Part shown: piece after piece, positions 15,505 to 36,559 of the stretch
Position numbering within the stretch: the first letter of the stretch is position 1
Layout of the letters: each line of letters opens with the position of its first letter
Source of the DNA: Flavobacteriales bacterium
GTDB taxonomy: Bacteria > Bacteroidota > Bacteroidia > Flavobacteriales_F > PHOS-HE28
Assembly: GCA_016787995.1 (NCBI GenBank)
Contig: JAEUTB010000188.1
Location: 9,920 to 73,919, forward strand
DNA length: 64,000 bases
Direction: 5' to 3'
The notes under the pieces: generated by a model
Database searches by the model: none
Told to the model about the DNA's origin: nothing
The model's input: only the letters and a program-made list of their open reading frames with translations
Made by a program: the position numbers and the translations under genes

Positions 15505-18471
15505 TTAGCGTCGCTCCAGCTCTGCGATGCGCTTCTCCAGCCGTTCGATGATCGCTTGCTGCTCTTGCACCGCTTTCACCAGGGGTACTACGAATTCGGC
15601 GTAGCGCAGACCGTAGAGATCCTGATCGTTCTTCGGTTCGTCTACACCACTGAAATCGAAGCCGGTCTCGTTGGCGACCTTCTCCACCTCCTGGGCGATG
15701 AAACCCGTATAGCGAATGGCCGCCTGCTCGCTGCTGCTTTGCTCCGCATCGTTGTCGTCCGTGGGCAGCACATTGCCATCCTTGTCCTTCGTTACACCTT
15801 CTTTGCGGAAGGCGCGGAGTTTTGACACATCGTAAGTGTAGGTCACCGGTCGAAGCTTCAGAATGAAATCCAGCCCTTTGACATCGGATCTCACCTGCTG
15901 TTTGAATCGTCCATCGCTCACGGTGGTCCATCCCACCTGACCACCGATGCTGGTGACCAAGGAGTTGCCTACACGCACCATGTTGGTGGCCGTTGGCCGT
16001 GCATCGTATCCGAGGGCGGTGGTGTTACCGAAGCCGTTCGCCGACGGACCCGCGGTGCGGCCGATAGCCGTGTTGTTATGACCGGTGCTGTTGTTCTCGA
16101 GCGCATTGAAACCGATCCCGGTGTTGTAGCGAGCCGATGTCAGAGCCCCTCCGGCGCTGAAGCCGAGCGCCGTGTTGTACTCGCCGTTACCAGCGGTCTG
16201 GCCAAGTGAATAGGCGCCGACGGCCGTATTGCCTGCGCCAGTGGTATTGGAGGTCAGCGCACCGGTACCCACGCCCGTATTGGATGTGCCACTCGAATTG
16301 CTGGTCAGTGTGAACGAACCAACAGCGGTATTGTCCGATGAGAGCGAATTGCGCAAGGTGTTGTAGCCCACCGCGGTGCAGTTGAGGCCTGAGATGTTCG
16401 CGAACATCGCCTTGCTTCCGACGGCCGTGTTGTAGTAGCCGTCCGGGACGGGGATCTTCCCACCAGGTAGAGCGAGGCCATCGGCATTGTTGTACAATGC
16501 GCTATCGCCGATGGCCACCAGATTGCCCCGGTTGTTGTTGCGCCGCAGGGCATGCACACCGACCGCAACATTGGAATAACCGATGGTGTTGTCCGCAGCA
16601 GCATTCGCCCCAACGGCCACGTTGTTCGATCCCGTGGTGGTAAGCAAAGTGCCCAGGCCCACGGCCGTGTTCTGGGTGCCACCGTTCCCGCTGAACATGG
16701 ATAGTGCGCCCACTGCCGTGTTGGAAGTGCCGGTAACGGAAGATCGCAACGCACCTGCACCGACCGCGCAATTGCTGGAACCCGAGGTCAGGTTTGTGAG
16801 CGCAGCGGCTCCGATGGCTGTATTCGTGCCCCCTGTTGTAACGGTGTCCAACGCGTTCGATCCCACTGCGGTGTTGTCCGCTGCCGTGGAATAGCGTAAC
16901 GCAGCTTTGCCAACGGCCGTGTTACTTGTGCCGGTGGCGTTCGCCATGGCTTGGTGTCCGAAAGCGGTAAGTGCCGTGGACGGGCTCACCCACCCCGCGC
17001 GCTGGGCGTTCACCCGCATCTCCAACGCCACGTTGTCCGTGGTGCCGATGAAATTGGTGCCCGCTATCGTGGCCGCGTTGCCCGTCAATGCCCAGCCGTT
17101 CGCGCTCCCAGCGGGTCCTTGAGGTCCTTGGGGGCCGATCAGTGATGTGCCCGTGCCCCAACCACCTGCGGTCTTCGGGCCGAAGATGGCATCGCTCGTG
17201 GTGTTGATGTAGAAGTCACCCAGCGCACCGATTCCGACCGCTGGATCGGTGGTGCCGTTCAGCACGGACTTACCATCCGCACCGTTCGTTCCATTGGTAC
17301 CCGGAGTTCCTTGTGGGCCTGTTGCACCAGTAGGGCCAGCAACACCTTGTGGACCTTGTGCACCGGTAGCCCCGTTGGCACCGGGAGGGCCTTGTGCTCC
17401 AACTGCACCAGTAGCGCCCTGTGGACCTTGAGGACCAGTAGCACCCGCAGTACCAGTAGGACCTTGCGGCCCCTGTGGCCCCACAAGCGATGTTCCGACG
17501 CCCCAGCTACCAGCTGTCTTCGGGCCGTAGATCATATCGCTCGTGGTGTTGATGTAGAAGTCGCCGTTGGCACCGAGGGCACTTGCCGGTGCCGTCGTTC
17601 CATTGAGCACGGTGCGGCCGTCAGCACCTGCGGCCCCGGTCGCGCCTGTGGCTCCGGTCGCCCCTTGCTGGCCCGCTGGCCCTGTGGCGCCCGTGGCACC
17701 GGTAGCACCGGCAGGCCCCGTGGCTCCTTGTGGCCCCGCAGGTCCTTGCGGCCCGGTCGGCCCTTGAATGGAGCCGACATTCTCCCATGTATTGGTGTTG
17801 TTGCTCCACACATACAGGCTGCCGTTCACCAGGTAAGCATCACCGGGGTCGCCCGTACCAGGTAGTTGGTTCACGTTGGTGAGCGAGCCGAGGATGGTCA
17901 CCCCGGTCCCATCCGCACCTGCGGGTCCTTGCGGCCCTGCAGGTCCTTGGGCACCTTGCGGCCCCTGTGGTCCTTGCGCACCTGTGGCGCCGGTCGGTCC
18001 AGTAGCGCCGGCGGGCCCGGTTGCGCCTGTCGCTCCGGCGACCCCCTGCGGACCTGGAGGGCCTGCAGGACCTATCGGCCCGGGTGTGTTGCTGGTCTCT
18101 GCGAACAAGGCGTACGGCACGCTCATCAGTTGTGTGGTGCCCATCGGTGTCCCGTTCACGCTAGTGCGGACGAACCAGGGTCCATTGCTCCAATCGATAC
18201 TGGCGAACGAGCCACTGACCACCGTGCCACCGCCGATCGCCACGTTGGCCAGGCCGAAGGTGTTGGTGGTCACCGCATGGTTCTCGTTGTACACCACGGT
18301 GCCGCTACTGCTGCCTTGCAGCACGGCGATGCCCAGCGTCGCGGCGGTGTTCGCTTGAATTGTACCACTTGCATCGCGCAGGATCGCTTGGTAGTTGATG
18401 CGTTGCGGTGCTTGTGCCCACACGGCCGTAGCGAGTGCGAAGGCGAAGAGGAGGGAAACGGACTTCTTCAT
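15505..18471 (-). CDS. collagen-like, tail-fibre-domain protein with C-terminal Peptidase_S74 intramolecular chaperone domain
   Basis: Signal peptide [20 protein letters not shown]. Four G-X-Y tracts. NT-A-V-G head-like repeats. C-terminus [30 protein letters not shown]...[10 protein letters not shown]...[30 protein letters not shown], as in endosialidase/tail-fibre chaperone domains. Confidence 0.9.
17272..18081 (-). repeat. collagen-like G-X-Y triplet-repeat tracts (coding)
   Basis: aa 131-189, 237-286 and 331-400 of ORF 15505-18471 are uninterrupted GXY (for example [58 protein letters not shown]). A short fourth tract lies at 17107-17136. Confidence 0.9.
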
Positions 18472-18474
18472 GGC

Positions 18475-18945
18475 TTAGTGGGTGATGGAGATCTTGAAGG
18501 ACTTCAGGGTGGTATCGTTGCCGAGCACGCGCAGGATGTAACCTCCGCTGGCGTAAGCTTCCATGTCGAGATCGGTGATCGAGGATGTGATGCGTCCTTC
18601 GTTCACCAAGCGTCCAGCAGCGTCGTGCAGGAAGTATTGCTGTGCGTTCGCGGCGTCTTCACACGCGATGTGCAGGGTGTGCGATACCGGGTTCGGGTAC
18701 ACGTTGATGACGATCGTGTTTGCCGGGGAGTCATCTACCAGGGTGGTGATGTCCGCCCAGGGTTGCTGAAAGCCTTGGGTGAGAACCACGTTGTTGGCGC
18801 CCGCCGTGGCGATCACCGGTTCACCGATGGTGTAGGTGATACGGGTCGCGGCATCGGCATGATGCCCGCCACCTCCGGAGACTACGGTCTGCGCAGTCCC
18901 GGCGATCGGAGCTGCGAGCGGAAGGAGAACGAGTAGGGATCGCAT
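18475..18945 (-). CDS. small secreted protein with T9SS C-terminal sorting domain
   Basis: Signal peptide MRSLLVLLPLAAPIAGTAQ. C-terminus VYPNPVSHTLHIACE...GGYILRVLGNDTTLKSFKISITH. Its stop is 3 nt before the collagen-like gene ATG. Confidence 0.75.
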   Translation of the reverse strand: MRSLLVLLPLAAPIAGTAQTVVSGGGGHHADAATRITYTIGEPVIATAGANNVVLTQGFQQPWADITTLVDDSPANTIVINVYPNPVSHTLHIACEDAANAQQYFLHDAAGRLVNEGRITSSITDLDMEAYASGGYILRVLGNDTTLKSFKISITH

Positions 18946-19017
18946 GGTACTTCGCTTTGGATGATGCGAAGTACCCGGGTTGCCGAGCGCGCATCAATAC
19001 CCCATGCGTAGTACATC

Positions 19018-21054
19018 CTACCTCACTTCCACAAGGCCGGGCATTTCAACGATACGGGAAGAGCCGCCATCAGCATACACGGCTTTCACGGCATAGCGGT
19101 AGCTACCGTTACCGGGCACGCGAACGTCGGCGAAGGTGGTCGCGTCCGATCCGGCCGAACCCACCGTGTTGGCCATCGCGCCGTTCTTGGAGCGGTAGAT
19201 CACATAGTGCTTCACCGGTCTGGTCGGTGGCACCCAGCTCACTTGTATGACATCATCGACCACCACTGCTTTTACCGCTTCGGCCGAAGGATGCTCCGGG
19301 CGCTGCGGAATGCGCACTTCCAAGGGCACCGAACGTGGCGATCGGTTGCCGGCGCTATCCACGGCCTGCATCAGGTAGGTGTATGCTGCGGCAGCCGTCA
19401 CCGTTCGATCGGTCCAGGTGCGCGGCTGTTCACTGGCATTCCAAGCGACCACCTCGCGCCATGTGGTGTCCACAGGGGATCGACGCAGCAGAACGTGCCT
19501 TGCAACGTCATCGTTGCTACTGGGGATGAAATGGATCACCACTGCACTGTCGTTCACCGCATAGCGCTCGATAACTGGGGCGACCGGTGCCACCTGGTCC
19601 GGCTTCACCAGATGGAGAACCGCGCTGAGTGGGCTATGGTTGAAGTTCCTGTCCACTGCCACCACCTTGTAATAGATGTGCTTGGTGAGCGTGCGCAGTG
19701 GAATGGTATCGTGGAACACGGTGTCCTGCTGAGGTTCGGGAGAAAGGTTGTTGAAGTTGTGATCGGCGGCGTTGGCGAAGAAGACACGGTAGCCCAACAG
19801 GTCCTGCTCTTTCCCCCATGGCCAATGGACCGTCACCACGCCAGCGGTGTCTATGCTTCCCTTCAGGCCGATGGGTGGTGCGGGCGCGACGGAATCCGCA
19901 AGCACACCATATCCGCTCAAGGAAACGGAGGCGTTGCCTGCGGTATCCACGGCCCACACCCTAAAATGGTTCTCGCCGATCAGGAACGAGGAGGTGTCCG
20001 TGAATTGCCGGGTGGAAGGTGGTAGCAGGTCCCGGTGCAAGGGCTGGTAGGCAGCATTGGTATGGTAGGTCTTCTCCACGCGGAATCCTTTCAGATCCGC
20101 AGTAGTTCCGGGCTGATCCCAATACACCACCAGCTTGCCCTGCTCATCGTTCACGCGCCGCATCACTGGGTTCGGTGGCGCGGTGCGATCACGGCCCATC
20201 GCGGTCACCACTGGAGCCTCACTGCTGATCATCCCGAAAGGCGTGATGCCCAGCACCCTGTACTGGTAGGGAACATAGTCGCGAGTGATGGTGGTGTCCG
20301 TATACGCATGATGCGTGGCCGCACCGCGTTCATTGTCCATGGGTACGAAGGGCACATCGTTCAAGCGCTGCCAGGCACCGGTGCCTTGTCGGCGTTCGAT
20401 CCAAAAGGCGCTGAATGAACTCTTCACCTGCTCGCGCTCCCAGCGCAGGGTGATGGTGTGTTCCTTCTCCTGCACGCTGAGCGCGGGCCCATGCGGTATG
20501 GTATGCGCACCGTCTTTCCGGTCGATGGCGATCATGGCCGTGTCCGCTTGTTGGGGGTCCAGTGTGATCAGCCGGTACAGGTAGTAGCCGGTCGCGCTCA
20601 CGTTCTTGTCCACCCAACGATAGCCAAGTGCATCGGCGATCTCGGGATCGATATCGGCATACAACGCACACAGCGACCAGCGCATGGTGGCCTGGTCGGC
20701 GGCGTCCATCTGCGCGCGCACATCACCGGTGTTGGGTCGCATATCATCACCATGGAGGGCTTGTGCGATGATAGGTGCATGGCTATTGGCGGCGAGGTGT
20801 TGTTTCAATGCCTCCAAGGACATTGGTTTGAGCGTGTCGGCATTCAGTCGTTGGACCTTCCGCTCTGGAGTGGACACGTCCACACGTTCGATACGGCAGC
20901 CGTAGCGGTTGAAGCGCTCCCAAGCCTGTACGCTGCTCGGTGCCCAGCGTACGATGACGGAATCAGCGGTATTGAAGGCCGTGGTCTGTAAGCTTTGACC
21001 GGCGACCGTTCGGCAAAGTGCGAAGCAGAGGAAGGCAAGGATGGAAGGGCGCAT
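19018..21054 (-). CDS. secreted multi-FN3-like domain protein
   Basis: Signal peptide (MRPSILAFLCFALCRTVAGQ). Five or six modules with FN3-type tyrosine-corner patterns (YYLYRLITLD, YQYRVLGITPFG, HFRVWAVDTAGN, YYKVVAVDRNFN, YTYLMQAVDSAGN, YRYAVKAVYADG). The ATG at 21054 is preferred over the track's TTG at 21060. Confidence 0.75.
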   Translation of the reverse strand: MRPSILAFLCFALCRTVAGQSLQTTAFNTADSVIVRWAPSSVQAWERFNRYGCRIERVDVSTPERKVQRLNADTLKPMSLEALKQHLAANSHAPIIAQALHGDDMRPNTGDVRAQMDAADQATMRWSLCALYADIDPEIADALGYRWVDKNVSATGYYLYRLITLDPQQADTAMIAIDRKDGAHTIPHGPALSVQEKEHTITLRWEREQVKSSFSAFWIERRQGTGAWQRLNDVPFVPMDNERGAATHHAYTDTTITRDYVPYQYRVLGITPFGMISSEAPVVTAMGRDRTAPPNPVMRRVNDEQGKLVVYWDQPGTTADLKGFRVEKTYHTNAAYQPLHRDLLPPSTRQFTDTSSFLIGENHFRVWAVDTAGNASVSLSGYGVLADSVAPAPPIGLKGSIDTAGVVTVHWPWGKEQDLLGYRVFFANAADHNFNNLSPEPQQDTVFHDTIPLRTLTKHIYYKVVAVDRNFNHSPLSAVLHLVKPDQVAPVAPVIERYAVNDSAVVIHFIPSSNDDVARHVLLRRSPVDTTWREVVAWNASEQPRTWTDRTVTAAAAYTYLMQAVDSAGNRSPRSVPLEVRIPQRPEHPSAEAVKAVVVDDVIQVSWVPPTRPVKHYVIYRSKNGAMANTVGSAGSDATTFADVRVPGNGSYRYAVKAVYADGGSSRIVEMPGLVEVR

Positions 21055-21056
21055 GA

Positions 21057-24000
21057 TCAAGGTGCTGTTTGCATGACGCCGCTGCCCGGCGGTGAGAGCG
21101 GTGAGTGGCTCACGGGTGCCACTGGACCCAGCGTGTGGTTGAACACCGCTTCGCCGTAGCTAACCGCCGCCTGCTGGTTCCAGTCGGTGAAGGGCATGCA
21201 TGTGGGTGGAGGGTGGAAGCTGAAGCGCACGCGGTAGTTGCCACGATAGGCGCGCTTGAACCCGGAGTTCTGGAAGCGGATGACCATGCTGCGGAGGGGC
21301 TCGGGCATCAGGCCGAAATACTCGGCTGGCGGTGGTGGCGCCTGCAGGGGGCCACAGTTCGCGATGACGTCGGCCGTGATGGTGAGCAACCGTTGATGGT
21401 CGTTGCGCACCACGATGGCCGTGGTGTGGTCCAGCCGCACGGATGCTGTAGAGGCCCCGGCGCTTACTGCGAGGTTGTTCGTGTTCTGGGCCACAAGGCC
21501 ATTGGCGGGTAACGGCACGGTCTCGTCTGGTGTGAGCGGCTGTCGGGTCGGGTTTCCAACGCGCCATTTCACTGTCTGGAACGGTGGGATCCCCGGAGCG
21601 GAAGGTGTATCGCTGTAGCGTGGTACACCGAATGCGTTATAGGTGACACTGCGCATCAGATCGATGGAGCTGCAATTGCGTGCTTCGATCTCCGCGTAAT
21701 AGTCATACAACACGGGGTCGCTCCACTGCACGGACCATGCATCGGTCAACGCATCGCTGAGAGAGATCAGCGGGGGTAGAACGAAGCTGGTGTTCTGGGG
21801 TGAGGTATAGCCGTTGACATCGAACACATCGAAGGACTCACCTTGGAGATCCGGGCGCAGCGTTTCCCTGGGTGGTGTTGCGCCATCGCTTTCGAGGAAG
21901 GTGGTGTTGTTGGTGAGCGCGGCCGCCTTGGCAGCGATAGTGTTGTGCGCCGATGTGCGGAAGTAATAGGTGAAGAGCAGCTTCTCGTTCGGCCTCACGG
22001 AGTACCCGGTCAACCTTCGCTGCCGAAGGTGGAAGGTGTGGCCTTGTTGACTGGTGGTGCTCGTACTGCTGGATGCGGTGGACATCATGCCCAGGTCGGC
22101 CAACGGGATGTACGCTTGTGGCCCGGTGCCGGACTGCACCAGACTATCCCGGTATATCACCTGCGCCACATAGGTCTTGCTGTTCAGCAATTGCGGCAAT
22201 GCGAAGGAGAGCGTGGTCGGTGTGTTCTCGTCCAGGTAAGGCGCAATGGGGCAGGTGATCGTTGGCCCGCCGGCGAGCGGTGTCAACATCATCTTGTAGA
22301 TCCGGACCCGGCCCGCTACCGCCTGTCCGAAGATCGCATCCTGCCCGGACAGATCGGCCTTGCAATGGATGATCGCGGAGCGGCATTCGTCCTGAAGCAC
22401 ATAGCGTTGGCCGATGAAGGGATACGTGTACAGCAGGTCCTGTTCGCGGATCTCTTTCAAACCTTCGCCGGTCTTGAACGTGACGGTGGTGTCCCAAATG
22501 GCCTGCTCACCTTGGGTGATCGCCGTTGCCCAAACACCTTCACTGTTGCGCTCTTCTGCACGCAGCCGCACGTTGAACGTGTATCTGGTCAGTGGGTCGA
22601 GGTAACGAGAGGGGATGACCAGGACTTGATCCTTCGAAGGAGCTATCGACTGGGTGGTCTGCTGTTCGGTACCCGACTTCTTCAAACTGACACCATCGAG
22701 CACCAATCGGAACGTACGCCAGTATGAGCTTCCATTGGAGCGATATTCCTTCATGTTGAACGGTGTGTCGAGCTTCATGTTCAACGCTACTTCACAATTC
22801 GCGCCCACATCCACGGGAGTGCTGCCAGGTGTGATGCCGTCGTTGTGTCGTGGAGTGATGTCGCCGATGGGATCAAGACCTGCTAAAGCGCCCGCACCGA
22901 AATCGTCACATGGGTGGCCCGCGGAGAACGGGAAGTTGAACGATCCGTCGATCATTCCGCCCAGGATGCTGTAGCGTCCGCCCACTTCGCCCCGCACCCA
23001 GTTGGGGTCGGCGAAGCCTCCTTGCAGTAGGGCTGCGGCGGCGATATTCATGATCTCGAAATCGCCCTCGGCGAACCACACGTCCACATGCAGGCTCACA
23101 CTTCCGCCCAGGTAGGCGAACACCTGACCGGTGGCGTAGAATCCCGCAATGCCTGGATCGGCGATGCCCTCACAGGTCATGTTGGCGGCTGAAACGAAGG
23201 CCATGTCGAAGCCCAAGCCCGCTTGCAATTGCATCCGCAAGAGGTAGAAGTCGAACTTCTGATCCAACGCGCCACGTGCCCCGAAGGCGATGCCATTGGC
23301 TTCATCCACGCCCGCAGGCCAGTTGAAGTCGGTGTTGCCGAGCAACGCGAGCACGGCGGCTGAGTCCGGTGGCAGCGGGTCGGGGAGTCCTTTGCCTACC
23401 ATGAAATAGCTGGTGGTGGAGAACAGACCGAGGAAGTCCAGCCCCACCGGCGTTTGCGGTGTGCCCACGAAGAGGTGCCAGGTATCGGGCGTGATCAACA
23501 ATTCGGCCGCGCCTGCCAGGTCATCCGGTCCGGTCCCCGCGACAAGGCCGCTGCCAATGGTTACCTTCATGGCGAAGTTGGCCTGGAAGACGTCATTGGG
23601 GAAGTCGAAGGTGATCTCCGCGCTGCCACGAATGGGCACGTAGGTGCGATCGTTCCGTTCGCTCATCATGTACACGTTGCCGTTGAGGAAGGCAGTGTTC
23701 ACGCCACCGCTTTCGCTGAAGGACATGCCAGCTGTGAGATCGCCATTGTACGCGCGACCACTGGCGCCATCGCCGAAGATGACGGTGGCCTGGAATCCGA
23801 AGCTGATGGCGGCGTCGGGTACGAACCGGATGCTGGTGAGCGTGAGGCCCGGCGTGTATTCGTCATCATCCTGAGCGGCGACCGTCGCTTGTGTCACCTG
23901 TTGTGCGCTCGGCAGGTCAGTGGTCCGGCGCATATGGTACCATGCACCACCACCGAAGCCGTACACGTTGAACGGTTGCCCGGGTGAGAAGCCACCCTCC

Positions 24001-27000
24001 TTCGCGAACATGGCATCGGCGTACCAGTAACGCATGCTGTTCACCGTTCCGAATTGCGCAGCGGCACGCACTTGCAAAGCCCCTTTCATGAACCAGGCGT
24101 TCACCAGCCCGTTGATGCCGTTGCCATAGACGGGATCATCGTGGTACCAGCGTAGGCCACCGATGATCTTCACCGCACCGGTCTCGCCGGTCACACCGAT
24201 CGAATCCAACTCGATGCTGTGATGGCCCCATTGGTGGATGGCCGTGGTGTTGAGCTGCCCGAGCACCACGATGCGCGTGGTGGCCACGAAGATGTTGGTC
24301 TGCCCGCTCAGGTCCAGGTTGATATCGAACCCGATCCCGGCCATCACGCCCCCTTCGGAATTGCGCCGTTCGGTGGTCACCCGGGTGATGCTCACCGGGA
24401 ACCCGCCGGAACTTCCGCCGGAGCTGTCTTCCTCGTCATCCAATTCCGGACTGTCATCCGCCAGGAATTTCTGCGGGCTCACGAGCGAGAATACACCGCT
24501 CTGGTCCACGTTCGTGTACGGGTCGTTGGTCTGGAAGTAGAGTTGTTGGAAACCGATGTCGCGGAAATTGATCTTCAGTTGAGCGGGTGCGTTCACATCG
24601 ATGCTCAACTTCCCGTTCAGTTCGGCCCGCGCGCTGTTGCCGGTGCTGGCATCGCCGAAGATGGCGCGCACGGTGCTGGTTTCGTAAAGCTCGGCGTGCG
24701 CCACGTACATCGGCACGTTCAGCGTACCATCCGGGTGCAGCAGGAATTCCATGCGCACATCCTCCGTCTGCGGATCGTGCTGGATCATACCGGTGTACAC
24801 GAGCAACGTATCGGTGAAGGGCATCTTGATGCGTCCTTTGAATCCGCCCTGGCTGAAGGTGTTCACCACGATGTCCATCTGCAACGTGTCGAGCGAGAAG
24901 CCCCAACCATCGAGGTTGCCTTCGTTGGCGTCGAGGATATTGGCCACTTTGAACTGCGCCGAAACACCTGTTCCGAACTCGTAGATGAAGTCGTCCACCT
25001 GCGCGGTGACGCGACCGGTGCCTTGGAAACGTTCGATGGTCGGTGGCAGGCGCAGCATGGTGCGTTCCACGTACACGCCGGTCCACGCGGGATCCACGGT
25101 GCCATCCTCCTGCATGTGCGCGCTGGCCAGGAAGTGTGCAGGTGGCAACTGCATATCCGGTGGGTTGGTGTAGCTCGCCAGATCGAGCCACGCTTCCTGG
25201 ACATCGAATCCCCAACTCTTCGCCTCGTTCAGATGGAAGGCCGTGTTCATGTCCATGCGACCCATGAGACCACCACGTCCGGTGCGCACACGTAGCGCAC
25301 CGATCACTTTACGCGGTCCATCTTCGCCGTTCGCGAGGTCTTCGCGTAGCTTCTCACGGCTGAAGCGGTATTCCGCATCGAACGTCACTGCACGGAAGCC
25401 GTTGCAGTCCCACGCCACGAAGGTGCCGCTGTCCTGTACGGTGGTGAAGCCGTCGGAGAAGCGGGCGCCTTTGAACTTCAAGGTGTCGTCGCCGAGGTCG
25501 ATGTTAAGGTCGCTCAGTAGGTAGAGCGTGGCCTCTTCGGTGAGGTCGCCGAAGCCGCCTGGGTGGAAGGGCATCGCCATGTTGCCCAAGCTGAGCGAGG
25601 TGCCCAGTTCATGCACGGGTAAGGACATGCCTGCGTTCATCCGCGCGATGGTGTCCGTGAACTGCATGCCAAGGATGCCGATGACCACGCGACCGATGCC
25701 CGGTACTTCCTTGTCCACGCCGAGCGGCAACCCCATGGGTGCGGCACCGCTGAATTGGCTGATCAAACGGCCGGCGGTATTCAGGTAGTCGTCCAACGCC
25801 TGCGCAGCTTGCGGACTGAAGCCCGCTGCCAACGAGCCACCTTGGATGAAGGCCGGCGGGATCACGCCTTCGTTGTCGTACAATGCGTTCACTTCGCCTT
25901 GGTACAGCCGTTTGTTCGCGTTGATGAGCGCCTGACTGAATCGGACACGGAGCAGCGCGTCCATCACTGGCACGGAGATCAAACCTTCGCCTGAAGCCAT
26001 GTTGCCAGCCCCGTGCAGGATGCTGGTGATGCGCATGTGGAACTTGCCCACCTGCACCGTGTCGCCCACTTGGGTGGTGTTCACGGCGTTTCGCTCAAGG
26101 ATGGGTGTGGGTGCGCGTCGGCTTTCGGCCAGGCATTCAGCCGCCGGTATCTCCTCTTCCTCAGCCGTTCCGCCGCCACCACCTTCACCGTCCTCAGGCT
26201 CTCCGATGCTGAAGCTGTAGGTGGGGCCGGCGCGATAATGGGCGCTGAACTCGTTGTTGTGGTCGATCACCCACACGATGCGCCAGTAGTAGGTGCCTTC
26301 CGCGTTCGGTGTGAAATCGAAGGTGATCTCCTTGTAGAATTCGGCGAGCATGCAGGGGAGGTCGCAACTGCCGTTGAGCAGGCTCAAAGTACTCCCGACC
26401 CGTTCGCTATGGGTGGCTTCGGTCTGGTTGAAATCAGCGGTCCTCGAGACGTCGATGCGCCAGCGTTGGTAGATGCGTCCGTCGGTCTGTGTGCTCAGGC
26501 CATCCACGTTCTGAATGATCGCGAAGGGAGGAAGCAAGCTCACCGGTGGTTCGGCGGTCTTGAAGCGCAAGGGCACAGCGGCGAAGCCGGTCTCTTCAGG
26601 GTTACCGCCGTTGCGCGGCAGCACGGCTTGGTGAGCAGGGCTGAGCATGCGTGGCGTTCCCATGCCGGTGGCGAACCCTCCATCGATGTATCCGCTGATG
26701 GGATCACCGTTGTCGGGGCTCAGCGTGATCTGTGCGTTCATCAAGTGTTCCTCGCCGCTCTCGAAGTACATCACGCCCTCTTCTCCAGGCCGTTTGTACA
26801 CGTTGATGTGGCGCGCTTGGTCCTCGGTCACAGGGGTGCCAAGCACATCCTCCTGCGACTCGCGCGGCCCATCGGCCCAGATCACCTCGCGTTGGTAAGT
26901 GGCTTGTTCACCGCCCACGTGGATCAACGTGAGCTCGCTATTGAACTGTGTGATGTCATCGCGGTAGGGATCGAAGCGGGCTACGATGGGCAGGAAGTCC

Positions 27001-27938
27001 CAGGGGAGTGTATCACCAACGACAGGAAAGGCGAAGGAGAAACCGGCATCACCGCTCCACGTGAAGGTGCAGGGCTCGGACCAGCCATCGTTCTGGAACA
27101 CATGCACTCCGCTCACGTCCACCGCGCGCACGTACCACGCGTACCGACGACCGGTCAACAACGCGGGCATGAGCTGTGTATACAGCACCTGCGCATTCAT
27201 CACATCATCCTCCCAGACCGGATCATTGGAGCTTTGCAAAGCCGACAGCGGATCGATGGCGTTCTCCTCTGACAGCAGTACGAGTTTGAAGTGGTACTGC
27301 ATGTTGGCCCCCATCGGCGGACCGGAGGGTAGGATCCAGTTGAAGAGCAGCGATTGGGGCTGGGCACCCTGCACCATTTGGTCGCATGCCGGAGCGAGCA
27401 ACTGTGGCGGTGGGGGATAGGCCACGGTGAATACATTGGAGCAGCCATCGCTGGGCGCACCTGCACTCAGTGGGGCGTTGGTGAAATAGTCGAACGCTTG
27501 GAGGCAGATCTGGTATTCACCTTCCGGGAGGAGCCCGAGCCGGATATCCTCTTCGGTGATGCCGGTGTACTGGAGTTGGCCGCCTGCATTGGAAACGAAG
27601 GGTTGTAGGTCGGTGCCCGAGATCGCGGTGAACCCGACCGGGACATTGAGCGGTGGAGCGTTCCACGGCTGGCCACCCTCGATGGTGACCGAGATGCTGC
27701 CATCCATGGTGCTGATGGAACCAGCGAGGTAGATATCGTGCGCAACGGCTCCTGGCAGATCGTTGTGGATCAAGACCGAGATCTGCTGCGGGTTCTGGAA
27801 GTATTGTACGTAGCTCGCGGTGTACGGCGGGTTCACCGTGGTGCTCAACGTCAGCGGGTTCAGCTGAGCGCGCACGCCGATGATGGTGAGGAGCGTGAGA
27901 GCGGTCAGCGAAGAGCGCAAGGCGGATCGGTGGGCCAT
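21057..27938 (-). CDS. giant (2293 aa) secreted protein of unknown function
   Basis: Uninterrupted ORF. Signal peptide (LTALTLLTIIGVRAQ). N-terminal Ig/FN3-like modules (YAWYVRAVDVSG, YYWRIVWVID). Acidic Gly/Glu linker GEPEDGEGGGGGTAEEEE. A long beta-rich remainder. No T9SS CTD and no catalytic motif recognised. Confidence 0.85.
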   Translation of the reverse strand: MAHRSALRSSLTALTLLTIIGVRAQLNPLTLSTTVNPPYTASYVQYFQNPQQISVLIHNDLPGAVAHDIYLAGSISTMDGSISVTIEGGQPWNAPPLNVPVGFTAISGTDLQPFVSNAGGQLQYTGITEEDIRLGLLPEGEYQICLQAFDYFTNAPLSAGAPSDGCSNVFTVAYPPPPQLLAPACDQMVQGAQPQSLLFNWILPSGPPMGANMQYHFKLVLLSEENAIDPLSALQSSNDPVWEDDVMNAQVLYTQLMPALLTGRRYAWYVRAVDVSGVHVFQNDGWSEPCTFTWSGDAGFSFAFPVVGDTLPWDFLPIVARFDPYRDDITQFNSELTLIHVGGEQATYQREVIWADGPRESQEDVLGTPVTEDQARHINVYKRPGEEGVMYFESGEEHLMNAQITLSPDNGDPISGYIDGGFATGMGTPRMLSPAHQAVLPRNGGNPEETGFAAVPLRFKTAEPPVSLLPPFAIIQNVDGLSTQTDGRIYQRWRIDVSRTADFNQTEATHSERVGSTLSLLNGSCDLPCMLAEFYKEITFDFTPNAEGTYYWRIVWVIDHNNEFSAHYRAGPTYSFSIGEPEDGEGGGGGTAEEEEIPAAECLAESRRAPTPILERNAVNTTQVGDTVQVGKFHMRITSILHGAGNMASGEGLISVPVMDALLRVRFSQALINANKRLYQGEVNALYDNEGVIPPAFIQGGSLAAGFSPQAAQALDDYLNTAGRLISQFSGAAPMGLPLGVDKEVPGIGRVVIGILGMQFTDTIARMNAGMSLPVHELGTSLSLGNMAMPFHPGGFGDLTEEATLYLLSDLNIDLGDDTLKFKGARFSDGFTTVQDSGTFVAWDCNGFRAVTFDAEYRFSREKLREDLANGEDGPRKVIGALRVRTGRGGLMGRMDMNTAFHLNEAKSWGFDVQEAWLDLASYTNPPDMQLPPAHFLASAHMQEDGTVDPAWTGVYVERTMLRLPPTIERFQGTGRVTAQVDDFIYEFGTGVSAQFKVANILDANEGNLDGWGFSLDTLQMDIVVNTFSQGGFKGRIKMPFTDTLLVYTGMIQHDPQTEDVRMEFLLHPDGTLNVPMYVAHAELYETSTVRAIFGDASTGNSARAELNGKLSIDVNAPAQLKINFRDIGFQQLYFQTNDPYTNVDQSGVFSLVSPQKFLADDSPELDDEEDSSGGSSGGFPVSITRVTTERRNSEGGVMAGIGFDINLDLSGQTNIFVATTRIVVLGQLNTTAIHQWGHHSIELDSIGVTGETGAVKIIGGLRWYHDDPVYGNGINGLVNAWFMKGALQVRAAAQFGTVNSMRYWYADAMFAKEGGFSPGQPFNVYGFGGGAWYHMRRTTDLPSAQQVTQATVAAQDDDEYTPGLTLTSIRFVPDAAISFGFQATVIFGDGASGRAYNGDLTAGMSFSESGGVNTAFLNGNVYMMSERNDRTYVPIRGSAEITFDFPNDVFQANFAMKVTIGSGLVAGTGPDDLAGAAELLITPDTWHLFVGTPQTPVGLDFLGLFSTTSYFMVGKGLPDPLPPDSAAVLALLGNTDFNWPAGVDEANGIAFGARGALDQKFDFYLLRMQLQAGLGFDMAFVSAANMTCEGIADPGIAGFYATGQVFAYLGGSVSLHVDVWFAEGDFEIMNIAAAALLQGGFADPNWVRGEVGGRYSILGGMIDGSFNFPFSAGHPCDDFGAGALAGLDPIGDITPRHNDGITPGSTPVDVGANCEVALNMKLDTPFNMKEYRSNGSSYWRTFRLVLDGVSLKKSGTEQQTTQSIAPSKDQVLVIPSRYLDPLTRYTFNVRLRAEERNSEGVWATAITQGEQAIWDTTVTFKTGEGLKEIREQDLLYTYPFIGQRYVLQDECRSAIIHCKADLSGQDAIFGQAVAGRVRIYKMMLTPLAGGPTITCPIAPYLDENTPTTLSFALPQLLNSKTYVAQVIYRDSLVQSGTGPQAYIPLADLGMMSTASSSTSTTSQQGHTFHLRQRRLTGYSVRPNEKLLFTYYFRTSAHNTIAAKAAALTNNTTFLESDGATPPRETLRPDLQGESFDVFDVNGYTSPQNTSFVLPPLISLSDALTDAWSVQWSDPVLYDYYAEIEARNCSSIDLMRSVTYNAFGVPRYSDTPSAPGIPPFQTVKWRVGNPTRQPLTPDETVPLPANGLVAQNTNNLAVSAGASTASVRLDHTTAIVVRNDHQRLLTITADVIANCGPLQAPPPPAEYFGLMPEPLRSMVIRFQNSGFKRAYRGNYRVRFSFHPPPTCMPFTDWNQQAAVSYGEAVFNHTLGPVAPVSHSPLSPPGSGVMQTAP

Positions 27939-27942
27939 GGCA

Positions 27943-29676
27943 CTAGGTCTTGGGTTGGAACACGAACACGTAACCGGCCAGCAGGCGTATCTCGGTGAAT
28001 TCGCGGGAGGCCACGAACGTGGTACTGTTCAACAGGCCGTTCACCGTGAGTTGAAAGCGATGCATCGCCGTTACGCGGTACTGCCAAGTGGTGTTGGCGT
28101 TCACGGTATTGCCCGCGTTGGCGCCATCCTGCAGGGCGGCGTTCCATGAAGCGGAGAGCGCACCGGTGAGCCTTTGCCTGGCCATGGTGCGGGAGATCCC
28201 GAATGTGGGCCCTACGAGGATGTAGGTGCTGCTGACCGAGGTGTTGCGGCTGAAGTTGATGCCCCCGTTCACCGAAAGGTTATCTGCATTTCGGGTGCGA
28301 TTGAGGAAGAGGTTGCCATAGATCACTTCATTCTCGGCGGTGGCGAAGGTGTTGTAGGGATTGAGGTCCTGCAGTTGTTGCAGGCCACCGGTGAGGCTGA
28401 TGGTGAAGGTGCGCTGGCTGTTGGTGCGCACATACCGCTGCGAAAGCGTCATGCTCCGGTTCACCTGTGCTACGCGGAACGTATCGCTGAGCGCGCGCAG
28501 ACCGGCTTGTTGTTCAATGCCGTAGTTGCTGAGGTTGATATCCGCACCGTACGTGCGTGAAGGGTTCCAGCTCACGTTGGCCGAGCCGATGCGACGGACC
28601 GAGGTGGCCATTTTGCGGCCGCTCAAGTTGTCCTGCTGCTGGCCGTAGCTGCCGCTCAGACGTAGTTTGTTCTTCCACAGGCGGAGGCTCGGTGCAACGG
28701 TGATGGCGCGCAGATCGGCCGCTTGGTAGTAGGCGCCGAGCGAACGGTAGTCCGGATCCACTTGCTTCACTTCGCCACGCAAGCTGAAGATCTTGTACGC
28801 ATAGGTGAGGGAGGTGTGGCCGGCGAACAACAGCTTCGCACCCAGGCGCGGGTTGAAGACGCCCTGCAAGGAAGCGGGCACATCGGTGGCCACGATGGCT
28901 GGTGCGCGCAGGTCCTCGTTCATGGCGCTGCCTCCTGCATCGAATTGCCAGGTGATGCGTTTGCCTAGAGCGAGTCTGCCGCTAACACCGAGCGCCACGT
29001 TCTGTTTAGGTGCCGATGCGGGATCGTTGCTCACCACCTCGGGAATGGAGGTGGTGTCATCCTCGGCCTGGAAGACCATCACATCGAAGTAGTTCCGCCG
29101 GTTGCCTACACCCACCTTGACACCGTAGCCGGTGCGTTCGTAAGCCGGCCGTGGTGCGATGGAGGCGAGCGTGTCCTGCGCCACCGGCTTGTTGAAGCGG
29201 CCGTAGAACGCGGCGAAGCGGAACCCCTTCGGCTCCAACTCCACGCCTGCGCCGAAGAACTGCACGCCGGCCATGGTGTACGGGTTGAAACGAATGCTGC
29301 GGTAGCCCAAGTGCAACTTGGCCCACTTGTAATAGGGGCTCATGCCATAGCGGTTGAAGGGCTGGGTCCACGTGCGCTGTTGCGAACCCACGTTGAAGCT
29401 CACCGGCACCTGCCAGCCATAGAGGCTCAGGGTAACAGCACCGGTGGTGTTCCACCAGAAGGGCTCGTTGCGCGGGGTGCCGTCACCGCTGTAGAAGTAG
29501 GGCCCGCCCATCACCGAAAGGCTGCCGTTGACCCGCACCGGCTTCTCCTTGCCGATGGCGCCCAGGTCCTGTGCGGTAACGCTCAGCACCATGGCCCAAG
29601 GGAGGAGCGCGGCTAAGAGGTGGTGCAGCGGAAGACGGTACATGCTGGCCTTGGTGGACGTTCCACGCTTGGCCAA
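27943..29676 (-). CDS. predicted outer-membrane beta-barrel protein (uncharacterised family)
   Basis: Signal peptide (LLAALLPWAMVLSVTAQ). Gly/aromatic-rich sequence with alternating amphipathic strands throughout (YGVKVGVGNRRNYFDVMVFQ, LTVNGLLNSTTFVASREFTEIRLLAGYVFVFQ). No POTRA or plug motif seen. Its stop is 4 nt before the giant gene ATG. An alternative start lies at 29643. Confidence 0.6.
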   Translation of the reverse strand: MAKRGTSTKASMYRLPLHHLLAALLPWAMVLSVTAQDLGAIGKEKPVRVNGSLSVMGGPYFYSGDGTPRNEPFWWNTTGAVTLSLYGWQVPVSFNVGSQQRTWTQPFNRYGMSPYYKWAKLHLGYRSIRFNPYTMAGVQFFGAGVELEPKGFRFAAFYGRFNKPVAQDTLASIAPRPAYERTGYGVKVGVGNRRNYFDVMVFQAEDDTTSIPEVVSNDPASAPKQNVALGVSGRLALGKRITWQFDAGGSAMNEDLRAPAIVATDVPASLQGVFNPRLGAKLLFAGHTSLTYAYKIFSLRGEVKQVDPDYRSLGAYYQAADLRAITVAPSLRLWKNKLRLSGSYGQQQDNLSGRKMATSVRRIGSANVSWNPSRTYGADINLSNYGIEQQAGLRALSDTFRVAQVNRSMTLSQRYVRTNSQRTFTISLTGGLQQLQDLNPYNTFATAENEVIYGNLFLNRTRNADNLSVNGGINFSRNTSVSSTYILVGPTFGISRTMARQRLTGALSASWNAALQDGANAGNTVNANTTWQYRVTAMHRFQLTVNGLLNSTTFVASREFTEIRLLAGYVFVFQPKT

Positions 29677-29724
29677 AAGTGCCTGCGCCGTGCTGGCCCG
29701 GCAATACCCCGTGTGTAGTACGCG

Positions 29725-30363
29725 CTACCGCCCGGGGTAGACCTTGCGCACGGCCTCCATACGCCCGTTCACCTGCAGTTTGCTGTAGATGCGCCGCACG
29801 TGCACACGTACGGTCTCCGTGCTGATACCCGCTTTGGCGGCGATCTCTTTGTACTGCAATCCGGAGGCGAGGCCATCGAGCACTCCTTTCTCCCGGTCGG
29901 TGAGCAGCTCGTCGTTGATCTGTTGCCGGGTCTCCTGCTGGAAGCTGCTCACCACCAAACGAGCGATGGCGCTGTTCATGGGCGATCCTCCTTTGTGGAT
30001 GTCGTGGATCGCTTCGAGCAGTTCTTCGGTGGTGGTGCTTTTCAACAGGTAACCCGTGGCACCGGCACAGAGGGCCTGGAAGATGTAGGCCGGGTTCTCG
30101 AAGATGGTGAGCATCAGGTATTGTACCTCGGGCTTCACCACCTTGGCTTCGCGCACGCAATCGATCCCGCTCTTACCGGGCATATTGATGTCCATCAGCA
30201 CCACTTGCGCCGTGAGCTCTTCGATGTGTTCCAGGAACGCATCGCCACTGGCATACGTGCGTACGAGTTGAAGCCCATCGGCCCGTTCGATACGGCGACG
30301 TAGCAATTCGCGCAGTTCATCATCGTCCTCAACGATGACGATACGGACCGGGGCGCTTGCCAT
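29725..30363 (-). CDS. NarL/FixJ-type response regulator (REC + LuxR HTH)
   Basis: Paralog of 5349-6002 (IVIVEDDDELRELLRRRI...VVLMDINMPGKSG...LTDREKGVLDGLASGLQYKEIAAKAGISTETVRVHVRRIYSKL). ATG 30363 is preferred over the track's TTG at 30396. Confidence 0.9.
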   Translation of the reverse strand: MASAPVRIVIVEDDDELRELLRRRIERADGLQLVRTYASGDAFLEHIEELTAQVVLMDINMPGKSGIDCVREAKVVKPEVQYLMLTIFENPAYIFQALCAGATGYLLKSTTTEELLEAIHDIHKGGSPMNSAIARLVVSSFQQETRQQINDELLTDREKGVLDGLASGLQYKEIAAKAGISTETVRVHVRRIYSKLQVNGRMEAVRKVYPGR

Positions 30364-30392
30364 GTGGGCAAGATAGCGTTTCCCGCTGGATA

Positions 30393-32243
30393 TCAAGTGT
30401 TGAGGGCAAGGTCCAGCTGGAGCCGGGTGCCCTTGGTACCATCCAAGCTCAAGCGTGCACCGATGCGTTCCGCACGTGCCCGCATATTGGACAGACCATG
30501 ACCACTCGCCTGTTCCTTGTCGCCCATTCCTTTGCCATCATCCTCCACCACCAGGCGAATGGACCGTTGGTCGGTACGCATCACCACCCCGATGTGCTCC
30601 GCCTTGGCATATTTGATCGCATTGTTCAGCCCTTCCCGCAGGATGAGGTAAACGTCCCTTTTCGTTCCTGGATCAAGGGTCACATCGGGCCCTTCGTGCA
30701 CGCAGTCTATCGTGTACTTGACGTGGCTCCATTCGAGCATCCGTTCAGCATGGGCACGCACCCGTTCGGTAAGCCCGGCGAGCGAGTCGTGGTGCGGGTC
30801 TATGGCCCAAACGATATCGCCGAGCGAACGATTGGCTTCGGCAGCGACACGTTCGATATCCCGTGCGGTACGTGCCAGCGCAACGGGATCGTTCTTCAGT
30901 ACGATGCCCACCTCACTGCTCAGCATGGCGAGTTTGGTAAGGTCGCTGCCGAGTTGATCGTGCACGTCGCGGGCGATACGGGTGCGCACTTCGGACGCTT
31001 CACGTTCCTTTTCGCTGATGATCAATTGCTCCTGTGCGCGCACCAGTTCTTCATTCTTAGCGCGCATGGCAAGGGCGCTACGTGCGCTGTTGCGGTAGAG
31101 GCCGAACCCGAGCGCGGCGATGACAAGAAGTAGACCGCCGCCGAGCAGTGCATTGCGCTTCTTTCGCTTTTCCTCAGCCAGTTCAGCGGCCACCCTCTCG
31201 GCCTCGCGTTCCTGCTCCGCCTTCATACGCACTTCGGTGATCGCCTGTGTCTTTTCGATATCGAGGTCGTTCGTGTGAGCTGTTCGGGCTTTGTCCAGAT
31301 AGGACAAGGCCTGTGCACTTTCTCCGGTGGCGCTTGCCACCAGCGCGAGCAGTTCGTAGGTACGGGATCGGTACTCGTTGTTCTCCAATTCAAGGGCGAT
31401 GCGTTCGGCTTCCAGCAGTATCGAACGCGCCTCTTGATACTTGCCGACGCCACAAAGGGCTCGTGCCAACTGACCGAGGTAGATGCACCGTTGGCCGAGA
31501 TTCTCATCGTTCCGGAGCTCCGAGGCGGCCATTCGCAAGTAGTGCAAGGCACTGTCGAAGCGCTCCTCTTTCATGTGGATCTCGGCGATGTCCATGCGGC
31601 ACAGCGCTGCATGGTTGAGGAGCTCCATACGCTCGTAGATGCCGAGTGTCTTGCGTTGGATGAGCAATGCGCTATCCCGGTCCGCCTCATCGAAGAGGAT
31701 GGTCCCGAGTCCCGAATAGGTGTTGGCCAGGTTACCATCCTCGGGCAGCTTGTCCAGGATGGCCAGCGCTTGGAGCGTGAGTGATTTCGCGCGGGGGATG
31801 TCGTCCGTGGCGCGGAACTGATAGGCCTGGTAGTTCATGGCGGCCGCCCGCAACTTCAGATCGCCCATGCGCTCGGCCACACGTTCCATGGTGGTGAAGG
31901 CCGCCAAGGCTTCGGCATACCGACCGGCATAGTGGTGGGCGACCCCTTCGAGCTTCGCGGCTTGCAAAGCGCGCTGGTCCAGCAGCCTCTTGTCACCGCC
32001 GTCGTCGATGGCATTGATCGCGTCGGCAGCGAGGCGCGCTGCCCTGTACGATCGTTCCGTTTCGCCGGTGGCCACCCACGCTTTCGCACTGTCCAACAGC
32101 TGATCGACCCGCACGGTATCGGCCCATCGGCCCGCCTTTCCGTTCGCGGGGAAAAGCGACTCCACTGCGATGTGGGTACTGTCCTGTGCAAGGACTGATG
32201 CTGCTGTGCAAAGCAGGAACAGGACAGGAGCGAGCATCCTCAT
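30393..32243 (-). CDS. TPR-repeat sensor histidine kinase (HisKA_3 / HATPase_c), array member 1
   Basis: Signal peptide from ATG 32243 (MRMLAPVLFLLCTAASVLAQ). TPR-like region, one TM helix. H-box RIARDVHDQLGSDLTKL. ATPase motifs NNAIKYA, DDGKGMG, GHGLSNM. Confidence 0.9.
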   Translation of the reverse strand: MRMLAPVLFLLCTAASVLAQDSTHIAVESLFPANGKAGRWADTVRVDQLLDSAKAWVATGETERSYRAARLAADAINAIDDGGDKRLLDQRALQAAKLEGVAHHYAGRYAEALAAFTTMERVAERMGDLKLRAAAMNYQAYQFRATDDIPRAKSLTLQALAILDKLPEDGNLANTYSGLGTILFDEADRDSALLIQRKTLGIYERMELLNHAALCRMDIAEIHMKEERFDSALHYLRMAASELRNDENLGQRCIYLGQLARALCGVGKYQEARSILLEAERIALELENNEYRSRTYELLALVASATGESAQALSYLDKARTAHTNDLDIEKTQAITEVRMKAEQEREAERVAAELAEEKRKKRNALLGGGLLLVIAALGFGLYRNSARSALAMRAKNEELVRAQEQLIISEKEREASEVRTRIARDVHDQLGSDLTKLAMLSSEVGIVLKNDPVALARTARDIERVAAEANRSLGDIVWAIDPHHDSLAGLTERVRAHAERMLEWSHVKYTIDCVHEGPDVTLDPGTKRDVYLILREGLNNAIKYAKAEHIGVVMRTDQRSIRLVVEDDGKGMGDKEQASGHGLSNMRARAERIGARLSLDGTKGTRLQLDLALNT

Positions 32244-32320
32244 GGTCGGTGGTCGGATCTTACACGTCGGATGCAACGAAGATCCAACTTCATTCCGATC
32301 GTGGAAATAACCCACGAGGG

Positions 32321-36449: not shown

Positions 36450-36559
36450 TAACCCGCTCAGGTTAGATCATGCCACATCGCGTTCATCCAGCTCGGTCAC
36501 CACTCATCACAATGGAAACATTATTCAGTGCAAAACGTTTCCAGTGTGTTCGGATCGCC

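Follow-up and report, generated by a model that had tools for sequence, protein, structure and literature searches.

We analysed a window of 64,000 nucleotides (~61% G+C) on contig JAEUTB010000188.1 of a Flavobacteriales bacterium (assembly GCA_016787995.1), in which the region of interest is a run of genes on the minus strand. Three of these genes encode a predicted outer-membrane beta-barrel of 566 amino acids (aa; 27943-29643), a giant protein of 2293 aa (21057-27938), and a secreted protein of 678 aa with multiple fibronectin type III (FN3) modules (19018-21054). The spacers are 4 nt between the barrel and giant genes and 2 nt between the giant and FN3 genes. This packing is not a matter of chance, because dozens of independent genomes show these genes arranged alike.

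The packed genes and their proteins

A first-pass annotation of this DNA described three minus-strand open reading frames (ORFs) packed end to end, and both junctions were found as it gave them. The TAG of the barrel gene is followed by tgcc and the ATG of the giant gene (27938-27945), and the TGA of the giant gene by tc and the ATG at 21054, with a TTG at 21060 overlapping the stop codon. The FN3 gene starts at ATG 21054, which yields the 678-aa product. For the barrel gene, the start is almost certainly ATG 29643 and not TTG 29676 (29674-29676, minus strand), from which a 577-aa ORF would be read, because 566 aa fits the 562-574-aa homologues and because this TTG is part of a conserved promoter-like box, ACTTTTGG.

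As annotated, all three proteins appear to carry Sec signal peptides, with N-termini that (read by eye) combine basic residues, a hydrophobic stretch and an A-x-A motif. The signal peptides end, also by eye, in SVTA before QD, GVRA before QL, and TVAG before QS; that of the giant, judged from its sequence, is MAHRSALRSSLTALTLLTIIGVRA followed by QL. Part of Supplemental Data 1 of Jana et al. (PMC7073777) gives SignalP and Phobius calls for homologous triads. Family scans of the three proteins were run against Pfam and NCBIfam at E ≤ 0.1. None of the three matched a type IX secretion system (T9SS) C-terminal domain (CTD), be it type A (TIGR04183/PF18962) or type B (TIGR04131), and Por_Secre_tail was identified in the neighbouring products of 18475-18945 and 11248-15432, in agreement with the first description.

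The AlphaFold2 model of the barrel protein, built from a 38-sequence alignment, had a mean predicted local distance difference test score (pLDDT) of 79.9 and consisted of ~26 long antiparallel strands. The first strand begins at residue 36, right behind the signal-peptide helix, and the model contains no separate N-terminal domain. Among the 50 matches listed by Foldseek against the PDB, all were outer-membrane barrels or complexes containing one. MtrB ranked first (E 9e-8, TMq 0.48), and after it came PapC/FimD ushers, TonB-dependent transporters and LptD. Because only such structures were returned, the 566-aa protein is, on its model, a large outer-membrane barrel that belongs with neither Omp85/TpsB nor the ushers. 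The earlier reading as a barrel without POTRA or plug regions is thus supported, whereas its length of 577 aa is not.

The likeness to PapC/FimD (TM 0.28-0.37) is generic to the fold, and an usher was rejected, with no match to the usher family (PF00577) for the barrel or its relatives. A TpsB-type barrel of two-partner secretion (TPS) was rejected as well, given the absence of a family match and of a periplasmic N-terminal domain in the model. The 36-strand SprA/Sov gave no family match and was absent among the 50 Foldseek matches listed for the barrel and for the core of the giant protein. The barrel matched no Pfam or NCBIfam family at all, no informative Pfam family was found in the 38 members, and single-sequence and profile searches against PDB sequences returned nothing for it. 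Its best-conserved motif, QPFNRYGMSPYYKWAKLHLGYRS (QPFNRYG.SPYYKWAKLH.GYRS; aa 94-116), is a candidate functional loop, as residues 93-100 sit in a low-confidence part of the model. A pattern scan with the barrel alignment detected relatives in at least 567 stretches of species-representative genomes. A 573-aa ORF elsewhere in the window (3577-5298) was considered as a second barrel and rejected (BLASTP against the barrel, E 1.8).

The head of the giant protein (aa 1-294; 27057-27938, minus strand) comprises the signal peptide, an invariant V-x-PPY at the mature N-terminus, a TANFOR-like region (~aa 30-170) with invariant Cys145 and Cys166, and an FN3/Ig-like region (aa 178-294). The first-pass annotation described Ig/FN3-like modules at the start of the giant and ~1600 aa of beta-rich sequence without a motif that it could name. 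The giant does carry a nameable motif: aa 34-155 match TIGR02542 (TANFOR) weakly, with an E-value of 7.8e-9 and a score of 35.6 bits that stays below the 67-bit NCBIfam cutoff. If RPS-BLAST behaves similarly, the match would pass the criteria used by Jana, Salomon & Bosis (E < 1e-7, ≥ 90 aa; PMC7073777). Giant homologues with 37-38% identity are labelled 'TANFOR domain-containing protein' at JGI.

Behind the head, aa 295-610 (26109-27056, minus strand) form beta-rich modules with no family match that end in the acidic Gly/Glu linker already noted in the first annotation (GEPEDGEGGGGGTAEEEE, aa 579-596, window 26151-26204). This part is confined to closer relatives, and its hidden Markov model (HMM; 'mid') is absent from Cytophagales-type giants. 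It is followed by the core (aa 611-1800; 22539-26108, minus strand), which the AlphaFold2 model (36 sequences; pLDDT 75.6, predicted TM-score 0.41) shows as all-beta and almost entirely made of long hairpins. The best Foldseek matches of the core were LptD and ApoB100 (E ~1e-7), with SlpA, teneurin and ushers also present. We rejected all of these folds and assigned none to the core, because the TM-scores were only 0.05-0.24. A TamB/AsmA-type protein was also rejected, with no AsmA/DUF490 match at E ≤ 0.1 in the giant or its relatives and none among the 50 core Foldseek matches listed. An RHS/YD-shell was rejected on the lack of RHS repeat matches, a weak teneurin match (probability 0.28, TM 0.07-0.08) and the lack of internal repeats, none of which exceeded 50% probability when eleven segments of the giant were compared using hhalign. 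The core family itself includes 1994 cluster representatives (E ≤ 1e-3), in proteins of ~400 to 5511 aa where the core lies at varying offsets.

The last part of the giant (aa 1801-2293; 21057-22538, minus strand) consists of beta-rich modules and a linker rich in Ser/Thr, and its C-terminus is conserved and contains Cys. The alignment columns of these C-terminal 490 aa are conserved across the subfamily, and the corresponding 'cterm' HMM matches the same loci as the core HMM. Pfam gave nothing useful for the giant, and the 18 giant relatives scanned showed no informative family beyond the weak TANFOR match and fn3. Head-less or much longer proteins of the core family (P0192, P0222, P0223, P0226) matched nothing in Pfam or NCBIfam, and searches of PDB sequences and profiles with the three proteins and their alignments yielded nothing beyond fn3 noise. 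An end-to-end match of the giant to a characterised protein such as SprA, TamB/AsmA or a known adhesin, which the first-pass annotation held to speak against its proposal, was sought and not found at E ≤ 0.1, nor was a PDB sequence match. A second homologue search starting from the giant alignment added almost no sequences, its reach being restricted by the word prefilter.

The third protein (19018-21054, minus strand) is identified as a multi-FN3 protein by Pfam (fn3, E 5.8e-8), and ~6 FN3-like modules were counted in it by eye. FN3 (COG3401) has been reported as enriched near TANFOR genes (P = 1e-56; PMC7073777).

Recurrence of the three families

A total of 83 loci (four of them fetched earlier) were examined and probed for the head using an HMM of giant aa 1-300. 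The head was found in 75, and seven of the other eight were too short downstream. Of the 76 loci with enough DNA, 75 have the barrel gene adjacent to that of a giant carrying this ~290-aa head; among loci whose sequence extends far enough to reveal it, an FN3 protein comes after the giant in the majority. Typical ORF sizes are ~550-570 aa for the barrel, 1400-2660 aa for the giant and 660-740 aa for the FN3 protein, and in some Cytophagales an additional ~350-aa gene is inserted in the series. The co-conservation of the three genes, on which the first-pass annotation had staked its proposal, is therefore borne out over the related loci. Barrel relatives span Flavobacteriales, Cytophagales, Chitinophagales, Bacteroidales and Ignavibacteria. 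The sole true exception was a Chitinophagales metagenome-assembled genome (MAG; locus L075, 9953-17906) where a barrel-family gene does not adjoin a TANFOR-headed giant. Its neighbours there encode four T9SS-CTD proteins that contain cohesin/dockerin and beta-helix domains.

HMMs built part by part showed that the head is universal and the only part common to all barrel-linked giants; the ~1200-aa core and the C-terminal region are restricted to some lineages. Giants of Dyadobacter, Fibrella, Larkinella, and some Ignavibacteria and Bacteroidales carry an unrelated body behind the same head. The triad is kept with a Dyadobacter-type giant of 2490 aa despite its wholly different body, with a 4200-aa giant whose body is of the DUF285/leucine-rich repeat (LRR) type (L087), and with a divergent barrel (L001). 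Gene order is permuted in L085 and L089, where the barrel lies downstream; in L089 the order is giant, a 175-aa gene, FN3 and barrel, with all three families retained. A second body type was observed in giants of 2100-2660 aa (L039, L043, L056, L057, L059, L064, L067, L068, L077-L081 and L083), which match the window's giant in the ~290-aa head only, their bodies matching neither the core nor a Pfam family. In the one giant of this type that was scanned (L039), the sole match was a CarboxypepD_reg domain.

Head-less proteins of ~1460 aa, composed of a signal peptide, the core and the C-terminal region, were identified in three loci (P0228 in L085, P0222 in L084, P0235 in L086). The order in L085 is a LytTR two-component system, a 344-aa protein, the core protein, the FN3 partner, a SprB-like T9SS protein and a barrel-family member. 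The latter is thus three genes from the head-less core protein, with the FN3 partner present, and the 344-aa protein showed no match to the head HMM.

Two paralogous triads are present in each of three MAGs (L016/L033, L019/L035 and L018/L036). For L016/L033 and L019/L035, whichever copy has the barrel nearer to the window's barrel also has the nearer giant, a pattern that suggests cognate barrel-giant pairing; L018 is too short downstream for this comparison.

Adjacency that recurs and survives both a permuted order and a swapped giant body leads us to conclude, from comparative sequence data, that the barrel, giant and FN3 families are a functional unit. The opposite view, that three unrelated secreted proteins are adjacent by happenstance, is effectively refuted by this synteny, as the adjacency is seen in 75 of 76 loci, in several orders and in a second phylum, despite permuted order and replaced body. 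We read the window triad as a single representative of a three-protein envelope module that is widespread in Bacteroidota and Ignavibacteria.

The interchangeable bodies also bear on the possibility that the giant stays in the periplasm as an envelope bridge or lipid sheet, its core forming a groove like those of TamB, AsmA or LptD on the barrel and serving outer-membrane homeostasis. The core is nearly all long beta-hairpins with LptD and ApoB100 as best Foldseek matches (E ~1e-7), and the partner barrel has ~26 strands, like LptD. Nonetheless, TM-scores of 0.05-0.24 justify no fold assignment, and no AsmA, DUF490 or LptD family match was obtained. The giant's N-terminus looks like a cleavable signal peptide and not an inner-membrane anchor, in agreement with the SignalP data for homologues in part of the published supplement. 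Moreover, bodies can be exchanged (LRR/DUF285, Dyadobacter type), paralogues occur within one genome, TANFOR proteins are found in only 5.8% of RefSeq Bacteroidetes genomes (PMC7073777), and the locus is under sensory two-component control. Since swappable bodies, paralogues, rarity and sensory control are atypical of a housekeeping lipid transporter, we consider this bridge improbable.

The TANFOR class was described by Jana, Salomon & Bosis in 2020 (PMC7073777), the only substantive paper that we found in the searchable literature, with no follow-up. They list 339 TANFOR-headed proteins, 87% of which are predicted to have a Sec signal. Many of these carry C-terminal nucleases or other toxins, anti-eukaryotic ones among them. 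Domains enriched around TANFOR genes include FN3, SprB, PKD and the T9SS CTD (Por_Secre_tail), and a T9SS is present in >95% of TANFOR-encoding genomes. The authors did not settle the route of export and put the T9SS forward speculatively. The main text mentions no barrel, no conserved upstream outer-membrane protein and no three-gene module. Part of Supplemental Data 1 (PMC7073777) nonetheless records, for several organisms (Dyadobacter, Spirosoma, Runella, Fibrisoma and Tannerella forsythia), a protein without annotation that is encoded upstream, has ~548-566 aa and bears a signal peptide; in the same rows an FN3 or ~660-aa protein is usually one or two genes downstream. The T. forsythia entries in these rows are the founding four-TANFOR proteins, and five of the rows, with upstream proteins of ~550-565 aa, correspond to loci that we fetched independently with the barrel query (L043, L054, L055, L060 and L070). 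The idea of an uncharacterised system therefore needs to be narrowed: the giants already figure in the catalogue of TANFOR polymorphic toxins, whereas the searchable literature does not describe the barrel as a family, the three genes as an obligatory set, the division into toxin and non-toxin branches, or the conserved operator (see below).

With so many toxin fusions in the class (PMC7073777), the giant could also be a polymorphic-toxin effector with an unrecognised toxin domain, delivered by the barrel and FN3 proteins. This would be compatible with export and differ on function. The varying offsets of the core in proteins of ~400 to 5511 aa suggest modular cargo, and the 175-aa gene right after the giant in L089 could encode an immunity protein. 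However, no toxin domain was found in the giant or 17 relatives (Pfam, NCBIfam), the C-terminus is conserved across the subfamily and not polymorphic, and the gene directly downstream encodes the conserved FN3 partner, no immunity-like gene being present. On these three grounds the window's giant subclass does not appear to be a polymorphic toxin in the strict sense, and we regard a cryptic toxin as quite unlikely.

Putative control region and flanking genes

The triad lies directly downstream of a response regulator and three kinases, as first annotated and as verified using Pfam. The regulator is of the NarL/LuxR type (Response_reg and GerE; 29725-30396, minus strand), and the kinases are tandem TPR, HisKA_3 and HATPase proteins (34416-36449, 32321-34432 and 30393-32357, minus strand). 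A LuxR regulator is found immediately upstream and on the same strand in 23/74 related loci, including distant Cytophagales, and homologues of the TPR histidine kinases occur upstream of the barrel in many.

Between the stop codon of the regulator and the barrel ATG, ~60 nt before the latter, we identified an imperfect TACYAC-N4-GKGGTA inverted repeat, GTACTACACACGGGGTATTG (29702-29721, minus strand), as a candidate response-regulator operator. A second copy, GTACTACGCATGGGGTATTG (18995-19014, minus strand), lies between the FN3 stop codon and the next gene. The window contains exactly two occurrences of the 20-nt element GTACTAC[A/G]CA[C/T]GGGGTATTG, compared with an expectation of 0.01. The pattern TACYAC-N4-GKGGTA-TTG is kept upstream of the barrel in 14 loci of the Flavobacteriales clade (L004-L015, L028 and L030), and a TTGCTTTG or ACTTTTGG box follows the operator after ~20-25 nt with the same spacing in related loci. 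In the window this box (29673-29680, minus strand) is 30 nt before the barrel ATG. It resembles the Bacteroidetes -7 element, TAnnTTTG, and the inverted repeat is NarL-like. The adjacent LuxR-type regulator probably uses this repeat as its operator. A generic scan for sigma-70 promoters and terminators was uninformative, with counts below the shuffled expectation.

Directly after the triad, a 156-aa T9SS-CTD protein (Por_Secre_tail; 18475-18945, minus strand) has homologues of 35-68% identity at the same position in 12 related loci. It is followed by a 988-aa fibre-like protein with collagen repeats and Peptidase_S74 (15505-18471, minus strand), N-terminal homologues of which were found in at least nine related loci, wherever the fetched DNA reaches. 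Within the Flavobacteriales clade (L004-L015, L028), the conserved block runs past the triad and through this pair (15505-18945, minus strand). The next T9SS-CTD protein (Por_Secre_tail) is encoded at 11248-15432.

A second, paralogous two-component pair was observed at 3577-7816 (minus strand), made up of a HisKA_3 kinase (5999-7816) plus a LuxR regulator (5349-6002). Next come an operator-like site with one mismatch, TACCACTTGTATGGTATT (5258-5275), and then a secreted protein. This is the 573-aa ORF at 3577-5298, whose true start is probably a Met ~68 codons in and whose C-terminus looks T9SS-CTD-like by eye; Pfam gave no match at E ≤ 1e-5. It appears that another surface protein has been placed under the same kind of regulatory scheme. 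A fourth match to the operator pattern, again with one mismatch (37143-37160, minus strand), lies within the region of a TetR gene and may be due to chance.

Proposed export or anchoring of the giant protein

Taken with the control region, these observations are, in our view, best explained by a dedicated barrel-based module that exports or anchors TANFOR-headed giants under the adjacent two-component system, acting via the conserved operator. We regard the chances of this reading as evenly balanced. All three proteins would cross the inner membrane via Sec, and the 566-aa protein would then form a plug-less outer-membrane barrel of ~26 strands. This barrel would engage the ~290-aa head of the giant (V-x-PPY N-terminus, TANFOR and FN3-like regions) and either thread the giant out or anchor it by retaining the head within the lumen, comparable to MtrB-MtrA or LptD-LptE. 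The variable body, here the ~1200-aa all-beta core with its beta-rich modules, would end on the cell surface or on vesicles. The multi-FN3 protein could be an obligatory accessory that acts as an escort in the periplasm, as a stalk or as a subunit displayed together with the giant. With regard to expression, the three TPR kinases would signal to the LuxR-type regulator, which we infer binds the NarL-like repeat in front of a Bacteroidetes-type promoter; the same operator precedes the next gene, which encodes a T9SS cargo. Of this picture, the data show the gene anatomy, the fold of the barrel, the relatedness to the TANFOR class, the co-conservation of the trio, the modular make-up of head and body, and the conserved operator; export or anchoring by the barrel, docking through the head, independence from the T9SS and binding of the repeat by the regulator are inferred.

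It is in favour of export or anchoring that the barrel's best Foldseek matches (MtrB, PapC/FimD, LptD) sheathe or pass polypeptides. An extracytoplasmic fate of the giants is also indirectly supported, because TANFOR toxins must leave the cell and because a T. forsythia TANFOR protein (3078 aa) has been detected in the vesicle proteome (PMC10682907).

Among known systems, two-partner secretion comes closest to the logic of the module, as do plug-and-barrel complexes (MtrCAB, LptDE). The defining sequence and domain tests fail for each of these families and for SprB-SprF. As in two-partner secretion, an outer-membrane barrel gene adjoins that of a giant, Sec-dependent, beta-rich protein, conservation is limited to the N-terminal ~250-300 aa of the giant, and the cargo bodies vary and may include toxins. 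TpsB proteins have 16 strands and two POTRA domains. In contrast, the window barrel has ~26 strands without POTRA or an Omp85 signature, an FN3 partner is obligatory as a third component, and no match was found at E ≤ 0.1 to ShlB, Bac_surface_Ag, POTRA, the haemagglutination domain or repeat, or the TPS domain. MtrCAB and LptD-LptE resemble the module in having a barrel of ~26 strands, whose lumen in these complexes is filled by a separately encoded partner, and the module likewise has three components. They differ in that there is no sequence relationship and neither haems nor LPS-transport components, so that the likeness is one of barrel size and shape (TM < 0.5). Chaperone-usher systems have PapC/FimD among the barrel's top structural matches and an Ig/FN3-fold accessory encoded alongside, but the window barrel has no plug and no N- or C-terminal usher domains, the accessory is a 678-aa multi-FN3 chain instead of a two-domain PapD-like chaperone, and the cargo is one giant instead of polymerising pilins. 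The TANFOR toxins are likewise large Sec-signal proteins with an N-terminal TANFOR region followed by FN3-like sequence and with FN3 and T9SS-cargo genes nearby (PMC7073777). The window's giant, however, scores below the curated cutoff and has a conserved C-terminus with neither a toxin domain nor an immunity gene, and for the toxins T9SS export has been proposed (PMC7073777).

SprB-SprF and the T9SS type-B cargoes offer a Bacteroidota-specific precedent for a giant surface protein paired with its own adjacent barrel gene, and SprB-like neighbours of the module are frequent. The giant could leave the cell via the T9SS, with the barrel acting as a cargo-specific anchor or adaptor (as PorP/SprF for SprB-type adhesins) and not as a channel; it would tether either the giant or the T9SS adhesins encoded nearby to the outer membrane. 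The triad has T9SS-cargo genes as neighbours in the window and in other loci, SprB-repeat proteins adjoin the module in L085, L086 and L089, and the barrel of L085 comes directly after a SprB-like gene, as in the sprB-sprF order. SprB and Por_Secre_tail are also enriched near TANFOR genes, in genomes that nearly all (>95%) encode a T9SS (PMC7073777). Against this stands the absence of type A or B CTDs in the three proteins at E ≤ 0.1 and of a PorP_SprF (PF11751) match in 38 barrel members, the latter tested at the level of sequence families and the same threshold. The window barrel is about twice the length of PorP/SprF proteins and, with ~26 strands, far larger than their barrels. In addition, the element conserved together with the barrel is at the N-terminus, the opposite end from T9SS signals. 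On balance, a T9SS-linked role of this kind seems to us rather unlikely.

Several points weigh against a dedicated export or anchoring module. Contact between the barrel and the giant is itself a proposal made from sequence. Core proteins without the TANFOR head also occur in barrel-containing clusters (L085), which weakens the case for the head as the sole docking element. T9SS-cargo genes persistently adjoin the module, and this adjacency leaves room for T9SS involvement. The weak likeness of the core model to LptD and ApoB100 would also fit a lipid-facing or envelope-spanning sheet. Lastly, for toxin-bearing TANFOR proteins in part of Supplemental Data 1 (from Flavobacteriaceae and a small number of other groups), the gene immediately upstream is in most cases that of a PKD lipoprotein or a SprB-like T9SS protein and not that of a barrel (PMC7073777). 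The TANFOR head is thus not always beside the barrel, which can also be several genes away (L085, L089).

If the module does export or anchor the giants, the TANFOR class would split into a toxin and a non-toxin (structural or adhesive) branch, and the docking module could be used for surface display. A stronger version, in which the barrel, TANFOR head and FN3 protein constitute a T9SS-independent outer-membrane secretion or display pathway of Bacteroidota and Ignavibacteria, with a plug-less barrel of a new family that would recognise the N-terminal ~290-aa module and export interchangeable cargoes including polymorphic toxins, is in our opinion possible but less likely. If true, such a pathway would answer how TANFOR toxins exit the cell. 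The barrel family, for which Pfam and NCBIfam hold no model, is in any event a concrete candidate for the TANFOR export route. It is encoded next to, or a few genes from, a TANFOR-headed giant and FN3 partner, and species-representative genomes contain several hundred such sites. Carriers of the barrel include the culturable Dyadobacter, Spirosoma and Runella; the pathogen Tannerella forsythia is probably another. The all-beta core of ~1200 aa by itself accounts for ~2000 cluster representatives.

Elsewhere in the window, we observed a YadA-head-repeat protein (9170-10654, plus strand), a TetR regulator with a TolC/HlyD/AcrB-type efflux system (36470-43319, plus strand), a second exporter set of the OEP/HlyD/ABC type (43729-48191, minus strand) and a non-specific DNA/RNA endonuclease (Endonuclease_NS; 61367-62263, minus strand). 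A type I restriction-modification system was also identified (S 53760-55769, M 55769-57466, R 57382-60465). The G+C content over 52000-60500 is 53-57%, compared with ~61% elsewhere, and this restriction-modification stretch may be a horizontally acquired island.

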